Numbered from the stretch's first letter, positions 28,120-61,307 are shown. The stretch is 64,000 nucleotides of DNA from an uncultured Acidobacteriota bacterium (GCA_963733815.1 CAVTEG010000015.1:171910-235909), one strand, 5' to 3'. Program-made: numbers and translations. Notes: a model not told the origin generated them from the sequence alone.

Positions 28120-31100
28120 TCACGCTTTCTCGATTTTCACGAGGAACGCCTTGTACTCCGGCGTCCAGGTGTTCGGGTCCATCGCGGACGGCGTCAGGTG
28201 GTTCGCGAGGGGGCCGGTGTGCCCGGTGTTGCCGGCGGCATACCCCCAGTGGAGCGGGAAGCCGATCTGCCAGATCTCCTTGCCGTCGACTTGAGCTTGA
28301 TGCAGCCGTTTCGTCACCATCGCGACGCCCTGCACGGAGCCGCGCGCGCGACGTGACCTTGACCTGAGATCCGTTGGCGATTCCCTTCTCCTTGGCCAGG
28401 CTCTTCCGGGATCTCGACGAAGAACCCGGGCTGGAGCTGGTTCAAGCCTGGGTGTGCTTGGTCCAGTAGTGGTACATCTCGGTGAGCCGGTAGGTCGTGC
28501 ACGACGATGGGAAAGTCGTACGGTTTCCGTAGACGTCCTTGTCGGATGTGAACTTCTTGGTGGCCGGGCTCGACGCTGACCTTCGGGTGGAGCAGGTTGT
28601 CGACGGGCGCTTCGATCGGTTCGTAGTGCTCGGGGAACGGACCGTCGTTCAAGCGATGCGGCGAAGAGCCGGCCCACGCCTTCCGGCAGCATGATGAAGG
28701 CGCCCGTACTCGCCCGGGCGGCGAGTCGGGCTTGATGTCGGGCACGTCGCCGACCCATTTCTTGCCGTTCCACACGATGCCGGGCCGCTTGGGATCCCAG
28801 GCTTTGCCCTGAGCGTCCGCAGACGCGCGGTTGTACATGATCCGGCGGTTGGCGGGCCAGGAGAAGGTCCAGTTGTGGTACATGCCGAGGCCTGTCGGGT
28901 CGGCGGTCGAGCGGCGCTGCGTGTTGTTGCCGGCCTCGGTGTAGGCGCCCGATGTAGAGCCAGTTGCCGCACATCGTCGAGCCGTCGTCCTGGAGCTGGC
29001 CGAAGCCGTCGAGCTGCTGGCCCGCGGCTTGCACGGAGGCTTCGTCTTGTCCTTGGGGTCCGGGATGTCGGCGACGGCCTTGCCATTCATCTCCTTGAGG
29101 CACTTCGCCGAGATCGGGATTGACCGGGTTGGTGTAGTCCCACGTCGACGTTGAGCGACCGGCTCCGGGACGCGCGCCGCCTTCCTTGCGCGTACAGGTC
29201 GCGAACCGCGAGGAAAATGCGCGCCATGATCTCCTGGTCGGCCCTGGCCTGGCCCGGCGGATCGACCGCCTTCCACTTCCACTGCAACCAGCGCGCGCGA
29301 GTTGGTGAAGCGAGCCGTCTTTCTCGGCGAAGTCGGCGGCGGGAGCTGGAAGACCTCGGTCTGGATCTTCGAGGCATCGGGCGTCCCGTATTCCTTGGGT
29401 GGCCTTCCAGAAGTGGCGGTCTCGATCTCGAAGTTCTCCGACGACCAGCCACTTCAGCTTCGAGAGAGCGGCGATGACCTTCGGCGTGTTCGGCCCGATG
29501 CCGACGGGGTTCATTCCGAACGTGATCAGGCCTTCGGGCGCCGGCTCCTTGCCGCCGGCGCGGTCGAGGTGCCGCGATACATGTCGTCGAAGATGTACAT
29601 CCAGCGAATAGTTGCCGTCGACCTTCGGGAGCCAGGCAGTACCCGAAGTCGTTTTCCTTGGTGGCGTTCTTCCCGTACAGGGCCTTCAGCAGCGAGACCA
29701 TGAACTTCGGATAGTTGCGCCAGTAGTTCATCGAGGCCCAGGCGCTGTTTGTTGAACGTCGTCGGAGTCGCGTCGGTCAGGTAGTCCTGCAGCGTCTGCG
29801 ACGGGCCCGCGAGGCGTCTTCATGTAGCCGGGCAGGATCTCGAACGTTCCCGCCCATGTCGGTGGCGCCCTGGATGTTCGAGTGGCCGCGCAACGCGTTG
29901 ACTCCGCCGCCGGGACGGCCGACGTTGCCCAGCAGCAGTTGCAGCATCGCCGCGCACCGGATCATCTGCACGCCGATCGAGTGCTGCGTCCAGCCCAGAG
30001 CGTACATAATCGTCCCGACGCGTCTCGGGCGGATACGATCGATGTGACGATCTCGGCCGACCTTGAGGAACTTGTCCTCGGGCGTGCCGCAGATGCGCTC
30101 GACCATCTCCGGGGTGTAGCGCTCGACGTGCTTCTTCAGGAGCTGGAAGACGCAGCGCGGGTCCTGCATCGTCGGGTCGACCTCGTAGGCCTTGCTCTTC
30201 GGGTCGGCCTCGTACGCCCAGTTGGTCTTGTCGTACTTCCCGATGCCTCGTCGAATCCGCTGAAGAGGCCCTCGTCGAAGCCGTACTTCTCGCCGATGAG
30301 ATAGGGCCGCGTTGGTGAAGAGCTTGACGTACTCCTCGTGGAAGCGCTTCTGCTCGATGGCGTAGCGGATGATCCCGAGCAGGAAGGCGATGTCGGTGCC
30401 GGCGCGGATCGGGGAGTAGTAAGTCGGCGACCGCAGCGGTGCGTGTGAAGCGCGGATCGACGGCGACGAGCTTGGCACTGCGGTTGCTGCTGGGCTTCGA
30501 TCGCACCACTTGAACCCGCAGGGATGGTTCTCGGCGGGATTGCCGCCCATGGCCAGGATCGACATCGGCGTTCTTGATGTCGATCCAGCCGTTGGTCATG
30601 GCTCCGCGCCCGAACGTGGCGGCCAAACTGGCCACCGTCGGGCCGTGTCAAACCCGGGCCTGGCTGTCCCGGTACGACACCCCCAGGGCCGCGACGGACT
30701 TTCCACTGCAAGAAGTTGAATTCGTTCGTGTCGGTGCAGCCGCCGATCATCGCGATGCCGGGGTTGCGATTGACGGTCTGGCCCTTGGCGTTCTTGGCGA
30801 CGAAGCACCGGTCGCGCGTGTCCTTGATGTGTCGCGCGATTCCGGCGATCGCATCGTCCCAGGAGATGTCCTCCCAGTTGTCCGAGCCCGGCCGGCGGAC
30901 CTTCGGCGTCAGCAGACGGTCGGGATTGTTGATGTCGTCGCGGAGAGTCGAGCCCTTCGGGCAAAGCGTTCCGCGGTTGATCGGGTGTTCGGGATCGCCT
31001 TCGACGTGAACGACGGCGGGTGTCGACGTTCTTGCGCCTTGTCGCCCAGCGTGTGAATGATCACTCCGCAGGAGACCGCGCAGTACGGGCAAGTACTTCG

Positions 31101-51921: not shown

Positions 51922-51993
51922 CGTTGCAGGTTGCAGGTTACAGGTTGCAGGCGGGATCCGGCCCCCTGAAACCTGCAACTTGAAACTTGCAAC
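51922..51993. promoter_or_regulatory. Large imperfect palindrome built from tandem GTTGCAG-like heptamers in the divergent DGQHR / MFP promoter region
   Basis: GTTGCAGGTTGCAGGTTACAGGTTGCAGG ...14 nt... CCTGAAACCTGCAACTTGAAACTTGCAACC. Confidence 0.4.
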
Positions 51994-52340
51994 CCGGTTA
52001 CGGCGGCGAAACGGTCTTCCAGTCCTGCCCGGCCACCATTTGGTCGTAGATCTGGTTCGCGCCCGTCAGGATCCCGGAGAGCTCGGCGGTGAGGATCGCG
52101 GCGAGCTCGGCGAGGGCGTCCGGACGGGCGACCGGAACGGAGCATTCCACCGAGGACTGGCCGAGCGAGGCGAAGAACGGGGAGGGCCGACGGGTCCAGT
52201 CGGAGTCGCTGCGCCGGTGCTTGGTCATCAGGAACGCGGCGAGGCGCCGCTCGTCCCAGGGCTCGGACATGACCCAGCTGAAATTCGCGCGCAGACCTTT
52301 CTGCTCGACGGAGGGCGCGTCGCTGGCCAGCGAGATCGAC

Positions 52341-53135
52341 ATGGAACCTCCGGAAACGATAGCATTCCGGCGTTCGTCCGACACCGTGAAAAGAGTCCTG
52401 TTTTCGGGCCTTCTCCTGCTCGGCCCGGGCTTGCGCCCGGCCGCGGCGCAGGACCGCGTGTACGCGTCTCACCTGATGGTCGACCAGGACGTCGCGGTCG
52501 CGTCGCGGATCTCGGGCGTCATCGCGTCGATCGCCGTGGACCGCGGAGCGGTCGTGACGCAGGGGCAGGAGCTCGCCGCGCTCGATCCTCGCGAGGCCGA
52601 CGCCGACGTGCGCGAGGCGAAGGAAGACATGGAGTTGAAGAAGGCCGAGCACGCCCGGGCGGAGTCGCTGGCCGCGTCCAAGATCACGAGCGCGGCGGAC
52701 CTGGACGAGAAGAAGGCCCAGTACGCCGTGGCCACGGCGCGGTGGGAGAAGGCCAAGACGTTGCGGGACTACACCGTGATCCGGGCGCCCTTCGCCGGTG
52801 TGGTCACCGAGAAGTACGCCCGCATCGGCCAGAAGGTCACCGAGGACAAGCCCGAGCCCTTGTTCAAGATCACGGCGGTCGAGCCCCTGCTCGCCCGGAT
52901 CTATCTGCCCGAGGAAGAGCTGCTCCGCGTCAAAGTCGGGGACCGCGTCGACATCGTCGCCGAGCGATTCCCGGACGTGAAGACGACCGGCGAGGTCCAG
53001 TTCATCAGCCCGACTGTGGACGCCGCGAGCGGGACCTTCCAGGTCGTGGTTCGGGTCAAGCGGGAGCCCGCGCGTACGGTGCTGCGGCCCGGCATCGCGG
53101 TCCAGGTGCGGTTCCCCAAGGCCGCGGCGAAGTAG
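52341..53135 (+). CDS. HlyD-family periplasmic adaptor (membrane fusion protein), short form
   Basis: An N-terminal anchor or signal (LFSGLLLLGPGLRPAAA) is followed by a biotinyl-lipoyl-like segment, a coiled coil and a beta-barrel segment. Confidence 0.7.
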   Translation: MEPPETIAFRRSSDTVKRVLFSGLLLLGPGLRPAAAQDRVYASHLMVDQDVAVASRISGVIASIAVDRGAVVTQGQELAALDPREADADVREAKEDMELKKAEHARAESLAASKITSAADLDEKKAQYAVATARWEKAKTLRDYTVIRAPFAGVVTEKYARIGQKVTEDKPEPLFKITAVEPLLARIYLPEEELLRVKVGDRVDIVAERFPDVKTTGEVQFISPTVDAASGTFQVVVRVKREPARTVLRPGIAVQVRFPKAAAK

Positions 53136-53151
53136 AGAATCGCCGGCAGGC

Positions 53152-53872
53152 CATGCCGCCGACCGCTCCCCGCACCTCCGCCCGTCTCCGGTCGGCCCGC
53201 GACCGTGTGCTCGTGCACGACATCAAGAACATGTCCTTCCGGCTCCGGCTGCTGCTGTCCAATCTCGACGAGCACTGGGAAGACCCCGACTTCCGCCGGA
53301 CCGTCCGCGACCTGCTCGCCTCCTGTGTGGAGCGGCTGGAGGGAATCGCAGGCCGGTTCGTGGAACGCGAGGATGCGGTTCTCATCAAGGTGGCCCTGGA
53401 CGTCAACGATCTGCTGCGCCAGGTCGCCGAGCTCCCGGGCCGCAGGTCGGGCCGAAAAGGCGCGGAGGCGAGTCCCGGCGTTTCCCTGGCACTCGGAGAT
53501 GCGCCTCGAATCTGGGGGGATCCCTACTACCTCGCCGACGCCGTGGCGAGCCTGGTCGACAACGCCTGCGAGGCCGCGGCGCCGGCAGGCCGCGTGCTCA
53601 TGAGGAGCTTTTCCGCCGGCAGCCCGCGCCGACCCCGGGCCGTCATCGAAATCATCGACAATGGAGCCGGGATGACTCCCGAGTTCCTGCGCGATCGGCT
53701 CTTCCAGCCCTTCGAGACAACCAAGCCGCAGGGCGTGGGACTCGGTCTCGCGACCGCCAACCAGATCGCTCGCCTGCATCGCGGGACGATCCGGGTCCTG
53801 AGTCAGCCCGGCGGCGGTACCCTCGTGCGGCTGTCCTTTCCCGGGATCCCGGCCGAGCCGGGCGAGGCCTAG
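53152..53872 (+). CDS. Cytoplasmic sensor histidine kinase (no sensor domain)
   Basis: The H-box is LVHDIKN, and the N/G1/G2 boxes are present (DNACEAA, IIDNGAGM, GVGLGLA). Confidence 0.75.
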
Positions 53873-54145
53873 CAGGTTGCTGAAAGAGGGTGTGGGATGG
53901 CGTTACGAGCGCCACGGGGTCAGATGCAAGGAAGCGCGACGACGGCGATGCCCTTGCATCGTCGAGGAGCGATGACGATGCAGATGGCCCCGCGCCGCCG
54001 TAACCCGAAGGGTGGACGGCAATTTGCCGGCGGCCGCTCAATCGCGATAGAGCACCGAGTCGCAACACTTTGGAACGGGCGCCGGATGCAAATTGCCGGA
54101 CACGACACCCGCATCCATCTTTCAGCGGCCTGCTAGGAGGCGCGC

Positions 54146-55523
54146 GGTGGGCGGTCAGGCCGAAGGCGCGATCGGCCGCATCCTCATCGTCGAGGACGAC
54201 GAGGTTCTCCTCGAGCAGCTGACCTGGGCGTTGAAGGGCAAGTTCGCGGTTTCGTCGGCGCGCGACGCCACGCATGGCAAGGCCCTTTGCGACGCGGAAC
54301 CGGACCTCTTTCTTTTCGACATGCGCCTGCCTCCGTCGCAACAGGTCCAGGAGGGGCTCGAGTTGTTGCGCCACGCGCGCCGGCGCGACCCGGAGGCCAC
54401 GGTCGTCATGATGTCGGGCGAAGGGGAGAGGGGCGACGCCCTGAAGGCGATCGCCCTGGGCGCCTTCGACTTCTTTCAGAAGCCGATCGACACGGCGGAA
54501 CTGCTGGTGATCCTGAACCGCGCTCTCGAGCGCCGGCGTCTGATGTCCGAGAACCGCGAGCTGCGCCGGGCCGTCTCCCAGCCGGCCGTCTCCGAGCGTT
54601 TGATCGGCGAGAGCCCGGCGCTGCGCCGCTTGAACAGCGAGATCGACCGTGTCGCCTCCGGCGACGCGACCGTGCTGCTCCACGGCGAGAGCGGCACCGG
54701 CAAGGATCTGGTGGCCCGGACGATCCACGCGCGCAGCGGACGCCGCGACCGCCCCTTCGTCGCCGTCAACGTGGCGGCGATGCCGGAAACGCTCGTCGAG
54801 GCGGAGCTGTTCGGTCACGAAAAGGGAGCCTTCACCGGAGCCATCGCATCGCGTCCCGGGCGCTTCGAGCTCGCGCACGGCGGCACGCTGTTTCTCGACG
54901 AAATCGGCACGCTCTCGCCGGCGGCCCAGGCGAAGCTGCTCCGCGCCATCGAAAGCCGGGAGGTCGAGAGAGTCGGCGGCCGCCGCGCGATCCCGGTGGA
55001 CTTTCGCCTGATTTCGGCCACCAATGAGGATCTGGAGGCGCGGGTGGGCGCCGGGAGCTTCCGGGAGGACCTGTACTACCGCATCAACACGATCCCGATC
55101 CGGATTCCGCCTCTGCGGGAGCGAGGCGACGACGTCGCGCTGCTGGCGCGGCACTTCCTCGGAGAGCTTCGCGCCAAGCATGGCCGGGGACCCACGCGCC
55201 TCTCGGAGGCGGCCCTGGCGCGCCTCTCGGCGCATCCGTGGAGAGGCAACGTCCGGGAGCTCCAGCACGCGATCGAGACGCTGGTGGTCTTCGCCGAAGG
55301 TGACGAGGTCGTCGAGGAGGATCTGCCGCGGGCCCTCCGGGAGCGCGCCTCGCCAAAGGCCGTCCACGCGTCGACGTCGTTCGCCCAGGCCGTCGAGGAC
55401 TTCGAGCGGCGACTGCTCTCAGACGCGATCGCCGCGGCCGGCGGCGTGAAGGCCGAGGCGGCGCGCAAGCTGGGTCTCGATGCGAATCAGATCAAGTATC
55501 TGTGTCGGAAATACGGGCTCTGA
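54146..55523 (+). CDS. Sigma-54-dependent response regulator (NtrC family)
   Basis: It has a receiver domain, an AAA+ sigma-54 activation domain (GESGTGKD, GAFTGA, ESELFGHEKGAFTGA-like) and a C-terminal Fis-type HTH. The GTG start has an AGGAGG RBS. Confidence 0.9.
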
Positions 55524-55530
55524 TTTATGG

Positions 55531-55568
55531 GTGAAAAACTCAACCGCGGTGAGAAAAGTTTTCACCAA
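55531..55568. promoter_or_regulatory. Candidate enhancer (UAS) palindrome for the NtrC-type regulator
   Basis: GGTGAAAAACT-N17-AGTTTTCACC lies about 90-120 bp upstream of the sigma-54 promoter. Confidence 0.4.
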
Positions 55569-55648
55569 GTCTTAGACTCGCGCCTGCCGCGAATCGTTAA
55601 ATTACTGAAAGCAAGCTATTTGTTTATCGTACCCGGGGCGGGAAAACC

Positions 55649-55664
55649 TGGCGCGAACCTTGCG
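55649..55664 (+). promoter_or_regulatory. Sigma-54 (-24/-12) promoter: TGGCGCGAACCTTGCG
   Basis: It matches YTGGCACGrNNNTTGCW with the GG and GC correctly spaced. It is followed by RBS AGGAGGG and ATG 55697. Confidence 0.6.
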
Positions 55665-55696
55665 CTCTAGTCGTTGGAAAGAGGAGGGAAGAAACA

Positions 55697-56218
55697 ATGG
55701 CGAACGAAGTCAAGATCAAGCTGACGGACGCGCAGAAGGAAAAGATCCGCGAGGCCACGGGCAAGGACATGCCCGAGATCCGCGTGGAGAGCTTCGGAGG
55801 CAACGCCGCGCTGTCTCCGACGACGAAGGTCGTCTCGGCTCGCGCGATGGGCAAGTCGATTGGCGCGCGGGCGACGGGCAAGTCGGTCGGCGCTCGGGCG
55901 ACGGGCAAGTCGATTGGCGCGCGAGCCACGGGCAAGTCGGTCGGCGCTCGGGCGACGGGCAAGTCGATTGGCGCTCGGGCCACGGGCAAGTCGGTCGGTG
56001 CGCGGGCGACGGGCAAGTCGATTGGCGCTCGGGCCACGGGCAAGTCGGTCGGTGCGCGGGCGACGGGCAAGTCGATTGGCGCGCGGGCGACGGGCAAGTC
56101 GATTGGCGCGCGGGCCACAGGCAAGTCGATTGGCGCTCGGGCCACAGGCAAGTCGATTGGCGCTCGGGCGACGGGCAAGTCGATTGGCGCTCGGGCAACG
56201 GGCAAGGCCCAGTTCTAA
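55697..56218 (+). CDS. Leader-plus-tandem-repeat small protein: about 50-aa amphipathic leader followed by 14 units of ARATGKS(I/V)G
   Basis: Translation gives MANEVKIKLTDAQKEKIREATGKDMPEIRVESFGGNAALSPTTKVVS, then 13 full nonapeptide units plus a terminal ARATGKAQF. It has no Cys, no signal peptide, a strong RBS and a sigma-54 promoter. Confidence 0.7.
   Translation: MANEVKIKLTDAQKEKIREATGKDMPEIRVESFGGNAALSPTTKVVSARAMGKSIGARATGKSVGARATGKSIGARATGKSVGARATGKSIGARATGKSVGARATGKSIGARATGKSVGARATGKSIGARATGKSIGARATGKSIGARATGKSIGARATGKSIGARATGKAQF
55838..56215. repeat. 27-bp in-frame tandem repeat (x14; 54-bp higher-order period over the first 8 units)
   Basis: Repeats of the form GCGCGGGCGACGGGCAAGTCGATTGGC. 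The I and V variants alternate at first, then five consecutive I units follow. Confidence 0.8.
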
Positions 56219-56240
56219 GGAACCCGCTTCACTTCGAAAC

Positions 56241-56269
56241 GCCCCGCTCCGGCGGGGCGTTTCTCTTTT
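56241..56269 (+). terminator. Rho-independent terminator (functional in both directions between convergent genes)
   Basis: A GCCCCGC-tccg-GCGGGGC stem is followed by GTTTCTCTTTT. Confidence 0.6.
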
Positions 56270-56273
56270 GCGT

Positions 56274-58463
56274 TCACCACGCCACGGACTGCACCCAACG
56301 CTTGAGCACGCGCCACGCGCGCGCCGCGTAAGAGGCGCGCCTTCCATAGATCTTGGCGTAACCGTGCATTCCGGCGTAGAGGCTGCCGTCCTCGTTGTCA
56401 AAAACGGCGAGGGCCACGAAACGCTCGGGCTGCTCCTGGGGCGCCGAGGGATCCGCATTCGCCGCGGCGGTCTTGGGTTGTGCGAGGGCGGCCGGGGCGA
56501 TCGAGACGATCGTGCCGTGAACGGGCCGCGGATGCCCGAGGAAAAGCGCGGTGACCGGCGCGTTCGGCACGAGATCTTCGAGAAGACGTTCGGAAACGGT
56601 CAGGTCCGCCGCCATCCGCCGGTCCTCGCCGACCTCGGCGAGAAGAGTCCCCGCGGGCACGGAGCGCCCTTCGAGGTCGCGTACGTAGGGAGTCAGCAAG
56701 TGCCCCGTCGAAGGGCTCTTCACCAGCAGGCGCTCCTCGCGGGCACGTCCGTTCTTCAAGGCCGCGTCGAGGGAGACGCCCCGGGTCTCGGATGCGAAGA
56801 CGCGCGCCGGCTCGGCGGCCTGCCGCGCCAGGCTCGCGTCGCGCGTCGCGCGCTCGCGCTCGGAAGTGAGCCGCTTCGTCGCTTCCGACGCGGCCGCGCT
56901 GACGAGCTGGAAGACCGGCTGCCCGGCCGTCACGCGATCCCCCTCCTGGGCGAGCGCGCGCGTCACGACCCCGTCTTCCGGAGCCTCCAGTCGGATCGTC
57001 ACCGTGGGCCGGAGCAGGGCGGGTGAGCGGAGTGTGCGCCGGCTCCAGGGGAGGAAGAACAGCAGGGCGAGCACGGCGGCGCCGGCGAAGAGCGCCGCGC
57101 GGATACGGTGCGACATGAGCAGCTCCTTCTTGTCGAGATAGAAGAGATGGCCCGTGCGCGTGACCAGGCGGACCCGCTTGCGAAAGAGGCGGTACAGCGT
57201 CAGGACCAGGAGCACGATCGCCCAGTTCGGGAAGAAGTGGTGGTAGAGGTTGTAGAGGAGCCCGCCGATGAACCGCATGACGACGCCCACCCACGCCAGC
57301 GCGAGCGAGCCGAAGATCCAGTAGATCCGGCGCTTGCGCCGTGAGACCAGGGGCACCTCGACGGGAAGCCTCAGCACGTATCGCTGGAAGCACGCCCCGA
57401 TGTAGCGGAACGATTCCTCCCGCAGGTCCGGAATTTCGAGCACGCTCGAGAGCGCGTAGTAGCCGTCGATCTTGATGAGCGGGTTGATGTTGAAGAAGAC
57501 CGTCGAAACTCCCGTGAAGAGCATCGTCTTGAACGCGATCTCGTGCACAAGAGTGTCGGGATAGGAGACCACCCACGCGAGCGTGGCCACCGAACACATG
57601 ATGGCCTCGATGTAGATGCCCGCCGTCGTGACCCAGAGCCGGTGCCACTTGTTCGTGAAGAGCACCGAGTCGGTCGTGTCGCAGTAGAACGCCGGCGTGA
57701 AATAGAGGAGCGCCAGGCCTATGTCGTGGACTTCGCCGCCGTAGATTTTGGTGACGTACGCGTGCGAGAACTCGTGGAACAGTCCGATGAAGGTCAGAAT
57801 GCAGAAGAACTGCACGACATCGAGAAGTGGTTTCGACGTCAACGCGTAGAGCTCGATCGTTCCGCTCCAGATCGCCCCCCAGTGCACGAGGATGACCCCG
57901 AAAGCCCAGCCGGCGAAGATCAAAGCCGCCGCCACGACGGGAGGCGTCCAGATCCAGCGCACGTACTTCACGGTCCGGTCCAGGAAGCGGTTGGGGTCGA
58001 GGACGTGGAAGAGCAGGAAGAACGGGTTGAAGCCCTCGGCCTTCTCCTCGGCGGCGCGCTGGCGGGCCGTCTTCGCGTTCGCGAGGAGCTTGAGGTTCCT
58101 CTCGGCCGCGGACTGCGCGATGAGGCCCATCTCGCGGAGCATTTCCGCGTACTCGCGGACGACGGCCATCTCGATCTTCTCGCGTGGGAACATCGCCTGG
58201 TACTCGGCATGGATCTGCGCCAGCGTCCGCGTCCCATCGAACATCTGGCAGAGCCCCCACTCGGGGTCGTCGAAGTTGTAGTACTTCGTGGTCTCCGGGT
58301 TCTTCACGACCCAGTTGATCTCGCCGAGCTGCACGACGCGCCGGATCACCGCGTCCGATCGGATGGCCGGGCGGTCGCTGGCGATGCCGTGACGGGCCGC
58401 GAGGGCCGCCGCGCCTTCTTCCGGGCGCGTGGCGGCGAGCAAACGTCCGGGGCGCGCGCTCAC
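56274..58463 (-). CDS. Tri-domain protein: PqqD-like RRE domain - M50/S2P-like zinc metalloprotease - HlyD-like adaptor
   Basis: The GTG start overlaps the upstream stop (GTGA). The N-terminus IRRVVQLGEINWVVKNPETTKYYNFDDPEWGLCQMFDGTRTLAQIHAEYQ...EYAEMLREMGLI fits the PqqD/RRE profile. The membrane core has HEFSHAY (HExxH) and NPLIKIDGYY (S2P NxxPxxxLDG motif). The C-terminus has a biotinyl-lipoyl-like segment, a coiled coil and a beta-barrel segment. The 384 codons of the track ORF upstream of the GTG overlap the neighbouring gene and are spurious. Confidence 0.75.
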   Translation of the reverse strand: MSARPGRLLAATRPEEGAAALAARHGIASDRPAIRSDAVIRRVVQLGEINWVVKNPETTKYYNFDDPEWGLCQMFDGTRTLAQIHAEYQAMFPREKIEMAVVREYAEMLREMGLIAQSAAERNLKLLANAKTARQRAAEEKAEGFNPFFLLFHVLDPNRFLDRTVKYVRWIWTPPVVAAALIFAGWAFGVILVHWGAIWSGTIELYALTSKPLLDVVQFFCILTFIGLFHEFSHAYVTKIYGGEVHDIGLALLYFTPAFYCDTTDSVLFTNKWHRLWVTTAGIYIEAIMCSVATLAWVVSYPDTLVHEIAFKTMLFTGVSTVFFNINPLIKIDGYYALSSVLEIPDLREESFRYIGACFQRYVLRLPVEVPLVSRRKRRIYWIFGSLALAWVGVVMRFIGGLLYNLYHHFFPNWAIVLLVLTLYRLFRKRVRLVTRTGHLFYLDKKELLMSHRIRAALFAGAAVLALLFFLPWSRRTLRSPALLRPTVTIRLEAPEDGVVTRALAQEGDRVTAGQPVFQLVSAAASEATKRLTSERERATRDASLARQAAEPARVFASETRGVSLDAALKNGRAREERLLVKSPSTGHLLTPYVRDLEGRSVPAGTLLAEVGEDRRMAADLTVSERLLEDLVPNAPVTALFLGHPRPVHGTIVSIAPAALAQPKTAAANADPSAPQEQPERFVALAVFDNEDGSLYAGMHGYAKIYGRRASYAARAWRVLKRWVQSVAW

Positions 58464-60919
58464 GGCAGAAGCGGCCAGATCTTGTTCCAGAGATACCGGA
58501 GAGGCTTCCGGAACAGCGCCGTGATGACGCGCCGCGTGCCGACGGAGACCTTGCCGTTGCCGAGCATGCCGGTCTTCAGCCTCCCGTCGGAATTCGGAAC
58601 GGCCACCTCGGCGATCAAGAAACGCTGGTCGCCTTCCTCGCGGATCCGGGGCGCGACGCGGGCGACTTCTCCACGGAAGAGCGTCCCGGGGTAGGGGTTG
58701 AACTTCAAAGCCGTCTTCTGGCCCGGCCGGACCAGGGCCGCGTCGGCCTCGGGAACGGCGACCTCGGCCGTTACGGTGCGAACGTCGGCGACGACGCAGA
58801 GCTCCGCGCCTCGCGGAAGAAGCTGACCGACCCTCTCCTCGATCCGCGGAGTCACGATGATGCCGGCGGCAGGTGCAGTCAACCGGGTGCGCGACAGGCG
58901 GTCTTCGGCGAGAGCGATGCGCGCGCGGGCCTCGCGCCGGCGCGCCTCGGCGTCGAAAACAGCGCCGGCGTCCGCATTCTGGCGCGACCGCGCAACGTCG
59001 ACGTCCGAAAGCGCCAGCGCCGACTTGGCCTCCGCCAGCGCGGCCTGGTAGCTCTCGTCCTTCAACGTCGCGATGACGTCGCCGGCCTCCACACGGTCGC
59101 CCTCCCGCCGCAGCACGGCGCCGACGACGCCGTCCACCATCGACGTGACGGCGGCGCGGCGGCCCGGGAGGACCCGTGCGGGCCCGGTGATGCGCAGGGG
59201 CCACGGTGCGACGAACAGGATCAGGGCGGCGACGGCCGCGCCGATTGCCCATCGCCGTCGGCGGGACAACGGGATCGCCGAGAGCTTGCGCTGCTTCTCC
59301 AGGAGCGGTTTCCAGAAGCCGGCCAGCGGCACCTGCTGGTAGAGCTGCGCATTGCGGACGGCCACGGTGGCCTGGTTGACCAGGATCGACAGGAGGTCTC
59401 GCGTCTCCTCTTCGAACACCAGCGGCTCCTTGCTCTCGAATCCGAGAGCGCCGAGCTTTCCTTCCTCGTCCTTGAGGAGGACGCCGTAGAACGACCTCAT
59501 GCCCGTTTCCTGGAAGATCGCCCGGAACTTCTCCTCGGTCTCGGGCCGGTCGGCGGTGATCGCGCCGTCCTCGGTCTGCGTCACCGCGGTGTCGGTCCCG
59601 GAGAGGAAGATCCACTGAAGCAGCTCTTCCATCCGCCGGGCCTCGGGGTTTTTCCGGTCCACCTCGGTCGTGCCGGAGAGCGCCCCCAGCCGCAGCTTCC
59701 CCTTCTCCTGGATCGCAATCCCGCAGCTGTCATAGTGGATCAACGCCGAGGTGGCGTTGACGATCGTCTGCATGACCTTGTCGAGATCGAGCGTGGCCGT
59801 GATCTCTCGGGACACGGCCAGGAGCGCGTCGAGCTCCTCGACCTTCTTCTCGGCCTCGTGCTGCCTCGCCGTCCGCAGGGCCCGGACGGCCTGGCGGGCG
59901 ACGTCCTGCAAAAGCTCCTCGTCCTCGGCCGAGAACTCGGGGTGCCGGCCGCGCTTGTTGGCGAGGACGAGCGCTCCGATCGTGATTTCTTCTTCGACGA
60001 GAGGCGCCGCCAGGACCGACTGGATCGGATAGCCGGTGTCCTCCTCCGCCCCCGGGTCCCCGGCGGGAATGCGGTTGCGCCGTACGGACGTCTGATCGGC
60101 GATGACGTCGCCGACGATCGAGGCGCCGACCGCCTCGGGCGCCGGGGTGACGTCGTAGTTCTCGTTGACGGCAGTGGCGGCCAGGTTGACCTCGCCCTTC
60201 GCGCTGTCGAGCACCCAGAGCGACGCCGATTCGGCCGTGACGAAGTCCGCGGCCTTGCGAACGATCAGCGCGGACAGCTCGTCGGTGTCGATCGTCGAGC
60301 CGAACGCCTTCGAGAGGTCGTAGAGGTTGGTCAGCCGCTCGATCGCGTGGAGCATGCCGACGGTCTTGCGCTCGGACCGCAGCGCCCGTCCCAGAGCCGG
60401 CGCCGCCTGCTCGAGGAATCTCTCCAGGCGCGCCAGCGCGTCTTCGGCGTCGGGCATGTGGCTGAAGTAGAGAGCGAGGAGTCCCACCACAAGGCCCTCG
60501 GCGTGGAGCGGCACCGCGAGGCAGGCGCGGAGCGTCGGGGGCAGCCCCCGCACGAAGGGATCGGAGGTTGCCAGCTCTTCTCCGGTCAGGACGATGGCCT
60601 GACGATCGCGGACCAGGTCATGGATGATGCCGGTCTCGCGCGGCGCCGATCGCCTCAGGAGCTTGTCGACTCCCGGGCCGGAACCCGCGATGCAGAGGAA
60701 CAGGGGATGAACGGTGTCGGGAGCCCAGAGCAGCGCGGCCTCGGCACCGGTCATGGTGATGCTCCATCGCGCCGCCCATCCCGACGTCTGCGAGAGGTTC
60801 TCGCAGAGGGCCAGCTCGGCGAGAGCCGAGACCTCGTCTTCGGACCCCGAGACGTGGTGCTCGGACTCGTCGGCCTCTTCGACCGGTTCGTCTTCCGTAT
60901 CTTCGGGCTCGTCCGCCAT
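58460..60919 (-). CDS. Triple-GAF-domain protein fused to a TM segment and a HlyD-like adaptor
   Basis: An acidic N-terminus is followed by three GAF-like modules (about 60-480 aa), a TM helix (WAIGAAVAALILFVAPW) and an MFP-like C-terminus (biotinyl-lipoyl-like segment, coiled coil, beta-barrel). Confidence 0.75.
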   Translation of the reverse strand: MADEPEDTEDEPVEEADESEHHVSGSEDEVSALAELALCENLSQTSGWAARWSITMTGAEAALLWAPDTVHPLFLCIAGSGPGVDKLLRRSAPRETGIIHDLVRDRQAIVLTGEELATSDPFVRGLPPTLRACLAVPLHAEGLVVGLLALYFSHMPDAEDALARLERFLEQAAPALGRALRSERKTVGMLHAIERLTNLYDLSKAFGSTIDTDELSALIVRKAADFVTAESASLWVLDSAKGEVNLAATAVNENYDVTPAPEAVGASIVGDVIADQTSVRRNRIPAGDPGAEEDTGYPIQSVLAAPLVEEEITIGALVLANKRGRHPEFSAEDEELLQDVARQAVRALRTARQHEAEKKVEELDALLAVSREITATLDLDKVMQTIVNATSALIHYDSCGIAIQEKGKLRLGALSGTTEVDRKNPEARRMEELLQWIFLSGTDTAVTQTEDGAITADRPETEEKFRAIFQETGMRSFYGVLLKDEEGKLGALGFESKEPLVFEEETRDLLSILVNQATVAVRNAQLYQQVPLAGFWKPLLEKQRKLSAIPLSRRRRWAIGAAVAALILFVAPWPLRITGPARVLPGRRAAVTSMVDGVVGAVLRREGDRVEAGDVIATLKDESYQAALAEAKSALALSDVDVARSRQNADAGAVFDAEARRREARARIALAEDRLSRTRLTAPAAGIIVTPRIEERVGQLLPRGAELCVVADVRTVTAEVAVPEADAALVRPGQKTALKFNPYPGTLFRGEVARVAPRIREEGDQRFLIAEVAVPNSDGRLKTGMLGNGKVSVGTRRVITALFRKPLRYLWNKIWPLLP

Positions 60920-60971: not shown

Positions 60972-61307
60972 TCAGAAGCTGGAGACCGCGGCCTCCATGT
61001 CGTCGTGGATCTCGAACACCGAGTCGAGCTTGGTCATCTGGAGGAGCTTGCGAATCTGGGGGCCGGCGCGGAGGAGCTTGGTCTGGCCCCCTTCCTTCTG
61101 CGACTGCGTCAGCGCCCGCACCAGAGCTCCGAGGCCCGAGCTGTCGAGGAAGCCCACGCCCGAAAGATCCACGAGCAGACGGGTATGGCCCTCCTCCAGC
61201 AGACGCGTGACGGTCTTCTTGAAGGTCGACTCGGCGTCGCCGATGACGAGGTCTCCCGTCACGGTCAGCACCGTTACGGAGCCGTCTTCATGAGTTTGAA
61301 GTTCCAT
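60972..61307 (-). CDS. STAS-domain protein (anti-sigma-factor antagonist SpoIIAA-like)
   Basis: A 111-aa ORF. The LVDLSGVGFLDSSGLGALV motif contains the conserved phosphorylatable Ser region. Confidence 0.8.
   Translation of the reverse strand: MELQTHEDGSVTVLTVTGDLVIGDAESTFKKTVTRLLEEGHTRLLVDLSGVGFLDSSGLGALVRALTQSQKEGGQTKLLRAGPQIRKLLQMTKLDSVFEIHDDMEAAVSSF

Follow-up and report, generated by a model that had tools for sequence, protein, structure and literature searches.

The window, by which we mean the whole 64,000-nt stretch of DNA from an uncultured Acidobacteriota bacterium, has a GC content of 67% and carries a block of genes in which a histidine kinase and a transcriptional activator precede a small gene for a repeat protein. 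The genes of this block are as follows.

52089–53135, plus strand: HlyD-family (membrane-fusion-like) gene before the kinase gene (Pfam HlyD_D23, 5.2e-22; HlyD_3, 2.9e-20)
53153–53872, plus strand: short histidine kinase, 239 aa (HATPase_c, 2e-19; H-box VHDIKN)
54147–55523, plus strand: NtrC-type enhancer-binding response regulator, 458 aa, with a GTG start and the ribosome-binding site AGGAGG at 54135–54140
55697–56218, plus strand: target gene, 173 aa, consisting of a conserved N-terminus (about 41 aa) and about 14 basic repeats of 9 aa
56274–58463, minus strand: HExxH intramembrane metalloprotease (M50-like) fused to an HlyD adaptor domain (Pfam HlyD_3 and Peptidase_M50)
58460–60919, minus strand: GAF-domain protein with a C-terminal HlyD adaptor (GAF, 2.3e-30 in three stretches; HlyD_D23, 1.6e-20)
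60972–61307, minus strand: STAS-domain protein (anti-sigma-antagonist-like), the first gene of the convergent operon (STAS, 3.5e-20; TIGR00377, 1.1e-20)

We used a set of 40 family loci (L081–L120), gathered by look-ups and one metagenome scan, for comparison with the window. The gene block occurs in soil and sediment metagenomes, and relatives with enough flanking sequence have the order HlyD-like gene, kinase, activator and small gene, followed by the convergent M50-HlyD, GAF-HlyD and STAS genes. Wherever the flank is long enough, the convergent operon adjoins the small gene, a conserved synteny, and the STAS protein is 86% identical in L081. The translated protease carries HEFSH and NPLIKIDG motifs and matches the NCBIfam models daptide_HExxH (6.9e-49, 167 bits against a cutoff of 300) and YydH/LiaK (1.7e-09).

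The kinase gene lies within a 630-aa open reading frame (51980–53872) that could be read as one large sensor kinase. The N-terminal 500 residues of this frame are without a Pfam match (E≤1), and the overlapping frame at 52089–53135 encodes the HlyD-family protein, indicating that the 630-aa frame is spurious over its first two-thirds. With the region re-parsed as an HlyD-family gene plus a short kinase, the block encodes three HlyD-type proteins. The true start of the HlyD-family gene is probably later than 52089. In L081 an HlyD-family gene likewise precedes the kinase gene, and a comparison of the translations by eye shows end-to-end resemblance between the kinase of the window and the one of L081, which has 234 aa. 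No sensor or transmembrane region is recognisable in the kinase encoded at 53153–53872, and its best NCBIfam match, PrsK (TIGR02916), scores 126.7 bits, below the cutoff of 300.

In the window the kinase and activator genes are separated by an insert of about 270 nt (53868–54137), flanked by 36-nt imperfect inverted repeats that are 75% complementary. The insert is missing from the closest relatives, L089 and L090, in which the gap between kinase and activator is approximately 10–18 nt, and no second copy was found within the window. From its sequence the insert looks like a small non-autonomous mobile element, and it may have altered expression of the activator in the window.

An earlier note on this DNA had placed an NtrC-type activator directly upstream of a sigma-54 promoter, and Pfam analysis confirmed the domain composition of the activator: a receiver domain (Response_reg, 5.5e-18), a sigma-54 AAA+ domain (Sigma54_activat, 8e-69; AAA_lid_14) and a C-terminal HTH_8 domain (1.3e-08). 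The GAFTGA motif is intact (at 54825), and the translation contains the Walker A sequence GESGTGK and the receiver residues DD...D...K. The GTG start at 54147 was fixed by alignment to L089 and L090. Among the NCBIfam models PrsR (TIGR02915) fits best, with 445.8 bits against a cutoff of 502.6, and the ntrC model gives 379.6 bits, below its cutoff of 558.6. Orthologues are 45–89% identical to the activator of the window (55–89% for those in which most of the gene could be compared), and they show almost no variation in the C-terminal helix (...GGVKAEAARKLGLDANQIKYLCRKYGL). The activator gene is found immediately upstream in 27 of 27 distinct intergenic sequences with a locatable 3′ end. When the activator protein was compared with 185,579 genomes, only NtrC paralogues of at most 48% identity were recovered, none of them with the small gene; at least 600 related activator stretches are present in the genomes searched.

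The intergenic region between activator and target (55524–55696) is AT-enriched, with 46–49% GC compared to about 67–72% around it. The regulatory features of the target gene are listed below.

55529–55545, no strand assigned: distal activator site UAS-1, predicted dyad GGGTGA-AAAAC-TCAACC, centred about −138 from the predicted start
55548–55566, no strand assigned: proximal activator site UAS-2, weaker predicted dyad GGTGA-GAAAAGTTT-TCACC, centred about −117
55598–55609, minus strand: IHF-like core TAAATTACTGAA, the reverse of WTCAR-N4-TTR, centred about −71
55649–55664, plus strand: predicted sigma-54 promoter TGGCGCGAACCTTGCG, with the −24 GG at 55650–51, the −12 GC at 55662–63 and canonical spacing
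55675–55677, plus strand: predicted transcription start, 12–14 nt past the −12 C, the usual sigma-54 geometry
55681–55687, plus strand: ribosome-binding site GAGGAGG, 9 nt before the ATG
56236–56273, plus strand: intrinsic terminator with a 12-bp stem (9 G-C pairs), a 4-nt loop and a T-rich tail

The promoter had been described as near-consensus in both sequence and spacing. The spacing is indeed canonical, the GG and GC doublets lying exactly one helical turn apart, but the element of the window (TGGCGCG-AACC-TTGCG) departs from TGGCACG-N4-TTGCW at two positions, with A replaced by G in the −24 block and W by G after TTGC. The pattern TGGCNC-N5-TTGC is observed three times in the window compared to 0.38 expected, and 0 of 100 shuffles reach three. 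The remaining matches (29018–29032 and 30473–30487, both on the plus strand) are GC-rich and lie inside long ORFs with no activator gene nearby, and are therefore probably due to chance; because these two are covered by ORFs, the element at 55649 is the only intergenic match.

Conservation of the promoter was determined in the 39 family loci that have at least 79 nt of upstream DNA, which represent 32 distinct sequences. The pattern TGGY-N7-TTGC is found exactly once in all 39, at 42–93 nt before the ATG. In an anchored alignment of the 32 distinct sequences, TGG, the T before TGC, and TGC itself are invariant, neighbouring positions are invariant or close to it, and the columns flanking the core mostly contain less than 0.3 bit. 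The pattern has a background rate of 5.9e-5 per nt, or only about 0.01–0.02 expected per upstream region searched, so that with flanks this poorly conserved the conservation of the promoter cannot be ascribed to chance. The element at 55649–55664 is thus predicted to be a genuine, textbook-style sigma-54 promoter. Transcription from the predicted start would produce a 5′ UTR of about 20–22 nt. This start adjoins a moderately conserved GCA at the matching positions of the alignment, in which the AGGAGG of the ribosome-binding site is also conserved. No sigma-70-like promoter was detected in 55300–56500, and neither rpoN nor ihf genes lie within the 64-kb window. A distant clade (L108, L111–L114 and L117) has a longer 5′ UTR, with about 45–80 nt between the −12 element and the ATG, and shares there a conserved GGCC(C/A)A(A/C)AGCCGGAA, which is duplicated in L108 and lacking in the window.

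The strong terminator that follows the small gene, together with the convergent orientation of the downstream genes, indicates that the unit is monocistronic. No Rfam families were found in 55400–56400, the terminator hairpin bearing a weak resemblance to sRNA terminators. A terminator scan detected nothing in the interval from the activator gene to the small gene, so transcription may read through from the former into the latter. The view of the locus as a compact, self-contained cassette thus needs to be qualified: it is compact, has a single target and has a terminator after the gene, but it is not insulated from the gene for its activator.

We also examined the inverted repeat that had been proposed as a palindromic enhancer of the promoter. 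A repeat is present at this position, but it is composed of two tandem dyads whose outer half-sites had been wrongly paired. The left arm (GGTGAAAAACT) sits at 55530–55540 rather than beginning at 55531, and the right arm (AGTTTTCACC) is found at 55557–55566, leaving a gap of 16 nt instead of 17. The arms are not exact complements, one having five A and the other four T. The activator gene, said to end 8 bp before the repeat, has its TGA stop codon at 55521–55523, a gap of 6 nt. The perfect inverted repeat consists of 8 nt (GGTGAAAA / TTTTCACC) with 21 nt between the arms. An inverted repeat of 8 nt or more is found in 49 of 2000 shuffles of the 125-nt spacer, making it only modestly unusual when considered alone.

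The two-dyad organization is most apparent in the relatives. In L108, which reads GGTTGAATGAGTCAACC-GC-GGTTGAAAAAGTCATCC, and in other loci, the DNA after the activator stop codon displays two adjacent 17-bp dyads; the corresponding sequence of the window across both sites is GGGTGAAAAACTCAACC-GC-GGTGAGAAAAGTTTTCACC. The spacer of UAS-2 in the window is 9 nt rather than 5 nt, and of the two halves of UAS-2 the one facing the promoter, TCA(A)CC, is better conserved. Sites were scored with a 17-bp dyad matrix trained on 26 other loci, the window being excluded. UAS-1 scores 24.5 bits and is the best match in the 64 kb on either strand, the next unrelated match having 11.3 bits, and UAS-2 (scored at 55550–55566) has 9.3 bits, the third best on the plus strand. 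A dyad-type site is present in 27 of 27 scanned loci, with a best site of 14–27 bits (the weak cases being L102, L110 and L109), and a second site is found 19–24 bp from the first in 26 of the 27 distinct loci, L109 having one site. All 68 matches of at least 16 bits in the family loci and the window fall 60–260 nt before the ATG of the small gene, and none falls elsewhere in the 424,604 nt scanned, both strands being counted. We predict that the enhancer is formed by two adjacent dyads of about 17 bp.

The spacing between sites and promoter is also conserved. The dyad centres of the window lie 112 and 91 bp upstream of the −24 T, consistent with the enhancer distance claimed in the earlier note. 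Enhancers of NtrC-like activators usually have at least two dyads some 80–150 bp upstream of the −24 element, subject to a constraint of helical phase. The centre of the distal site is 112–115 bp from the −24 T in 21 of the 27 distinct loci, and the outliers are mostly at 103 and 124–127 bp, about one helical turn off. The recognition helix of the activator (...LGLDANQIKYLCRKYGL) is almost invariant, in step with the conserved half-sites. Matrix matches at unrelated or paralogue activator loci, mostly of lower G+C, are isolated single sites of 16–21 bits, and were treated as chance rather than as extra targets of the activator. A weak match at 51978–51994 (minus strand), upstream of the HlyD-like, kinase and activator genes, scores 11.3 bits, compared to a background range of 11.0–11.2, and was rejected as an additional target; since this match lies within the background range, autoregulation is not supported.

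Two other arrangements were found among the family loci. L112 (about 480–1230) and L114 (about 630–1198) contain two small repeat-protein genes in tandem. The second of these genes is preceded by a small gene, not by an activator gene, and has its own site (22–25 bits) 114 bp from its own −24 element, from which we conclude that the site–promoter module travels with the target gene. L087 (1–243) has a perfect −24/−12 element, but the 197 nt upstream contain no recognisable dyad of the GGTTGA/TCAACC type; at 28–50 it carries a different palindrome, CTTGAT...ATCAAG.

The IHF-like core lies between the activator sites and the promoter, and has one mismatch to the full 13-mer (WATCAR-N4-TTR core). 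Six loci, the window among them, have the sequence YAA-N4-YTGAW at −51/−50 relative to the −24 T, and the clade of the window retains it. Within 75 nt upstream of the −24 element such a core is present in 9 of 27 loci compared to 0.26 expected from shuffles, and it is absent or degenerate in the others. The core has TGA(A) in common with the activator half-site, and could for this reason be something else. We assign it with low confidence as a probable bending site.

These features allow for several interpretations of the repeat. If it were one palindrome with a spacer of 16–21 nt (GGTGAAAA ... TTTTCACC), it would bind a single activator dimer, and the perfect 8-nt inverted repeat, matched in few of the shuffles, is what such a site would offer. 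The inner half-sites, however, are as well conserved as the outer ones in relatives such as L108 and L117, and the window contains both of them, TCAACC at 55540–45 and GGTGA at 55548–52. In addition, 55529–55545 reaches its high matrix score by itself, and the A4/T4 extension that makes the outer arms perfect is not conserved. We consider a single palindrome very improbable. The repeat begins 6 nt past the stop codon, the usual place for a terminator, and might thus act in RNA, as a terminator or by stabilising the 3′ end of the activator mRNA. The predicted fold of 55518–55580 argues against this, having a z-score of −1.26, and 25 of 200 shuffles fold equally well. The stem is rich in A and U, its loop spans 21 nt and there is no T-run, nothing was found there by the terminator scan, and what is conserved is dyad half-sites at fixed DNA spacing rather than compensatory pairs. 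A role as an RNA element is accordingly extremely improbable, and two tandem dyads in DNA remain our reading of the repeat.

The promoter could also be real and the adjacent activator not its regulator, the dyads binding another protein or the activator acting elsewhere. Soil bacteria of this kind have many NtrC paralogues, as is apparent from the number of related stretches in the genomes searched, and L087 has the promoter without the dyads. Against this, activator gene, dyads and promoter are conserved together in orthologues as distant as about 45% identity, recognition helix and half-sites alike hardly vary, the scanned family loci have no dyads at other positions, and the fixed distance of about 113 bp to the −24 element is typical of an enhancer site. 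We judge a non-cognate activator to be very unlikely. Finally, both motifs could have arisen by chance in an AT-rich spacer, with the gene transcribed by read-through or from an unrecognised promoter. The motifs are short, two other −24/−12-like matches in the window are evidently chance, and read-through from the activator gene would meet no terminator. The conservation of the motifs in 32 distinct sequences with unconserved flanks, at the low background rate given above, leaves almost nothing for this reading, and we regard it as effectively refuted by the comparative data. As judged from sequence comparison, the locus is very probably a sigma-54 transcription unit that depends on an enhancer and serves a single target gene. 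The predicted promoter unit is conserved in about 30 related soil-metagenome loci, in each of which it would drive one small gene.

We infer a mechanism for this unit that includes phosphorylation, binding of the activator to the dyads, involvement of IHF, the position of the start site and dependence on rpoN. The short kinase (53153–53872) would phosphorylate the receiver domain of the NtrC-type activator (54147–55523), whose Fis-type helix-turn-helix would bind both dyads just past its own stop codon, and on the dyads the activator would assemble into an active AAA+ oligomer. The AT-rich spacer, probably bent at the IHF-like element (55598–55609), would loop the oligomer to the promoter, where the sigma-54 holoenzyme would be waiting in a closed complex at TGGCGCG-N4-TTGC (55649–55664). 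ATP hydrolysis, acting through the GAFTGA loop, would then open the promoter, and transcription would proceed from about 55675–55677 through the 173-aa gene to end at the terminator (56236–56273).

To characterize the target of this unit, we examined the small protein and its relatives. In the window the repeat is ARATGKS(I/V)G, encoded by a 27-nt DNA repeat present in 13.7 copies, and the N-terminal region is hydrophilic. No Pfam or NCBIfam family or PEP motif was found in the protein, and an exact look-up of its sequence gave no recorded match. A search of 1.84 billion cluster representatives yielded 79 matches to the target family at E≤0.001, a few of which are long unrelated proteins, and the family amounts to about 75 sequence clusters at 50% identity and is uncharacterised. 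Its members share the N-terminus of about 41 aa, M[AS]NEVKIKLT[DE].QK.KI[KR]E.TG...E[IV].V...G.N.A. Relatives of the window protein share this N-terminus (MANEVKIKLTDAQKEKIREATGKD.PEIRV...) and have basic repeats that are entirely different. Repeats in the family are 5–15 residues long and 50–130 residues in total; A, R, K, S and T are abundant in them, acidic, aromatic and Cys residues are mostly absent, and several members end in F or Y. The family has no signal peptide. The sequences suggest that the repeats are fast-evolving and polycationic and follow a leader-like N-terminus.

The local regulon of the activator is apparently one gene. Tight, all-or-none control is typical of sigma-54, which suggests that the repeat protein carries a cost or is toxic when not required; this would fit a secreted polycation but is no proof of one. 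We put forward, as a tentative and rather doubtful proposal, that the cassette is the on-switch of an undescribed envelope system conserved as a block, in which the protease-HlyD fusion, acting with the GAF-HlyD and STAS proteins, cleaves the target and exports it. In such a system the repeat protein would be absent until the kinase/activator pair fires, and the HlyD-like protein encoded beside the sensor-less kinase could feed back on expression. If true, this would represent a new class of cationic peptide or polycation, unmodified and sigma-54-gated, with a very specific promoter/activator pair, for which roles as an antimicrobial, a matrix component or a DNA-binding protein are candidates. 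The predicted consensus of the activator site (GGTTGA-N5-TCAACC, in two copies, about 113 bp from the −24 element) appears to be previously undescribed, and offers a clean handle for genetic and reporter work on the uncharacterised gene block. A search of the literature on M50-HlyD-GAF-STAS neighbourhoods, sigma-54 control of precursor peptides and daptide-type proteases found no description of the system, the paper on PrsK/PrsR being the one relevant analogue.

The predicted unit resembles several known systems in part. The convergent protease matches the families of the daptide MpaP-like and YydH/LiaK epipeptide systems, and the target, like a precursor peptide, has a conserved N-terminus followed by a hypervariable C-terminal part. 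Unlike in those systems, the protease scores below the family cutoffs and is fused to an HlyD adaptor, there are no modification enzymes in the conserved neighbourhood, and the ‘core’ of the target consists of 50–130 residues of basic tandem repeats, unlike any described RiPP. At NifA-dependent nifH-type promoters the activator has a GAF domain instead of a receiver domain and recognizes TGT-N10-ACA, and IHF bends the DNA in a manner subject to face-of-helix dependence. The locus has in common with these an upstream dyad about 100–150 bp from the −24/−12 element, and its partly conserved IHF-like core is a candidate for an IHF site between the two.

Both regulators have their closest profiles in PrsK/PrsR. 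The ‘PEP-CTERM box’ of that system is a 17-nt motif, sometimes repeated, that lies at a fixed distance of about 63 nt upstream of a −24/−12 promoter and heads single-gene operons with long intergenic regions encoding small low-complexity exported proteins; the PrsR upstream motif ends in TTTACA, and the regulon includes dozens of genes (Haft et al. 2006, PMC1569441). The regulators described here differ in scoring below the curated equivalog cutoffs. Their putative sites contain GGTTGA/TCAACC rather than the TTTACA end, the target lacks a PEP-CTERM domain, each locus has one target, and the conserved neighbourhood is without EpsH/exosortase or PrsT. Based on the scores, the motif and the target, we do not consider the pair a member of the PrsK/PrsR family.

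In both architecture and function, the closest counterpart by analogy is NtrC at glnAp2. At the E. coli glnAp2 promoter, NtrC (NRI) has two 17-bp dyads near −140 and −108 (TGCACC-N5-GGTGCA), oligomerises on these tandem sites and acts by DNA looping on a −24/−12 promoter. The unit described here likewise combines an activator of receiver, AAA+ (GAFTGA) and Fis-type HTH domains with tandem dyads, here predicted at about −138 and −117, the adjacent dyads lying about two to three helical turns apart upstream of the −24/−12 element. It differs from glnAp2 in its half-sites (GGTTGA-N5-TCAACC), in a short kinase lacking the PAS domain of NtrB, in the putative IHF-like site, which has no equivalent at glnAp2, and in having a single small repeat-protein target rather than a role in nitrogen assimilation. 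The regulatory logic would be ordinary, and the more unusual part is the target system, in which a putative leader plus polycationic repeats is encoded beside an M50-HlyD protease fusion.
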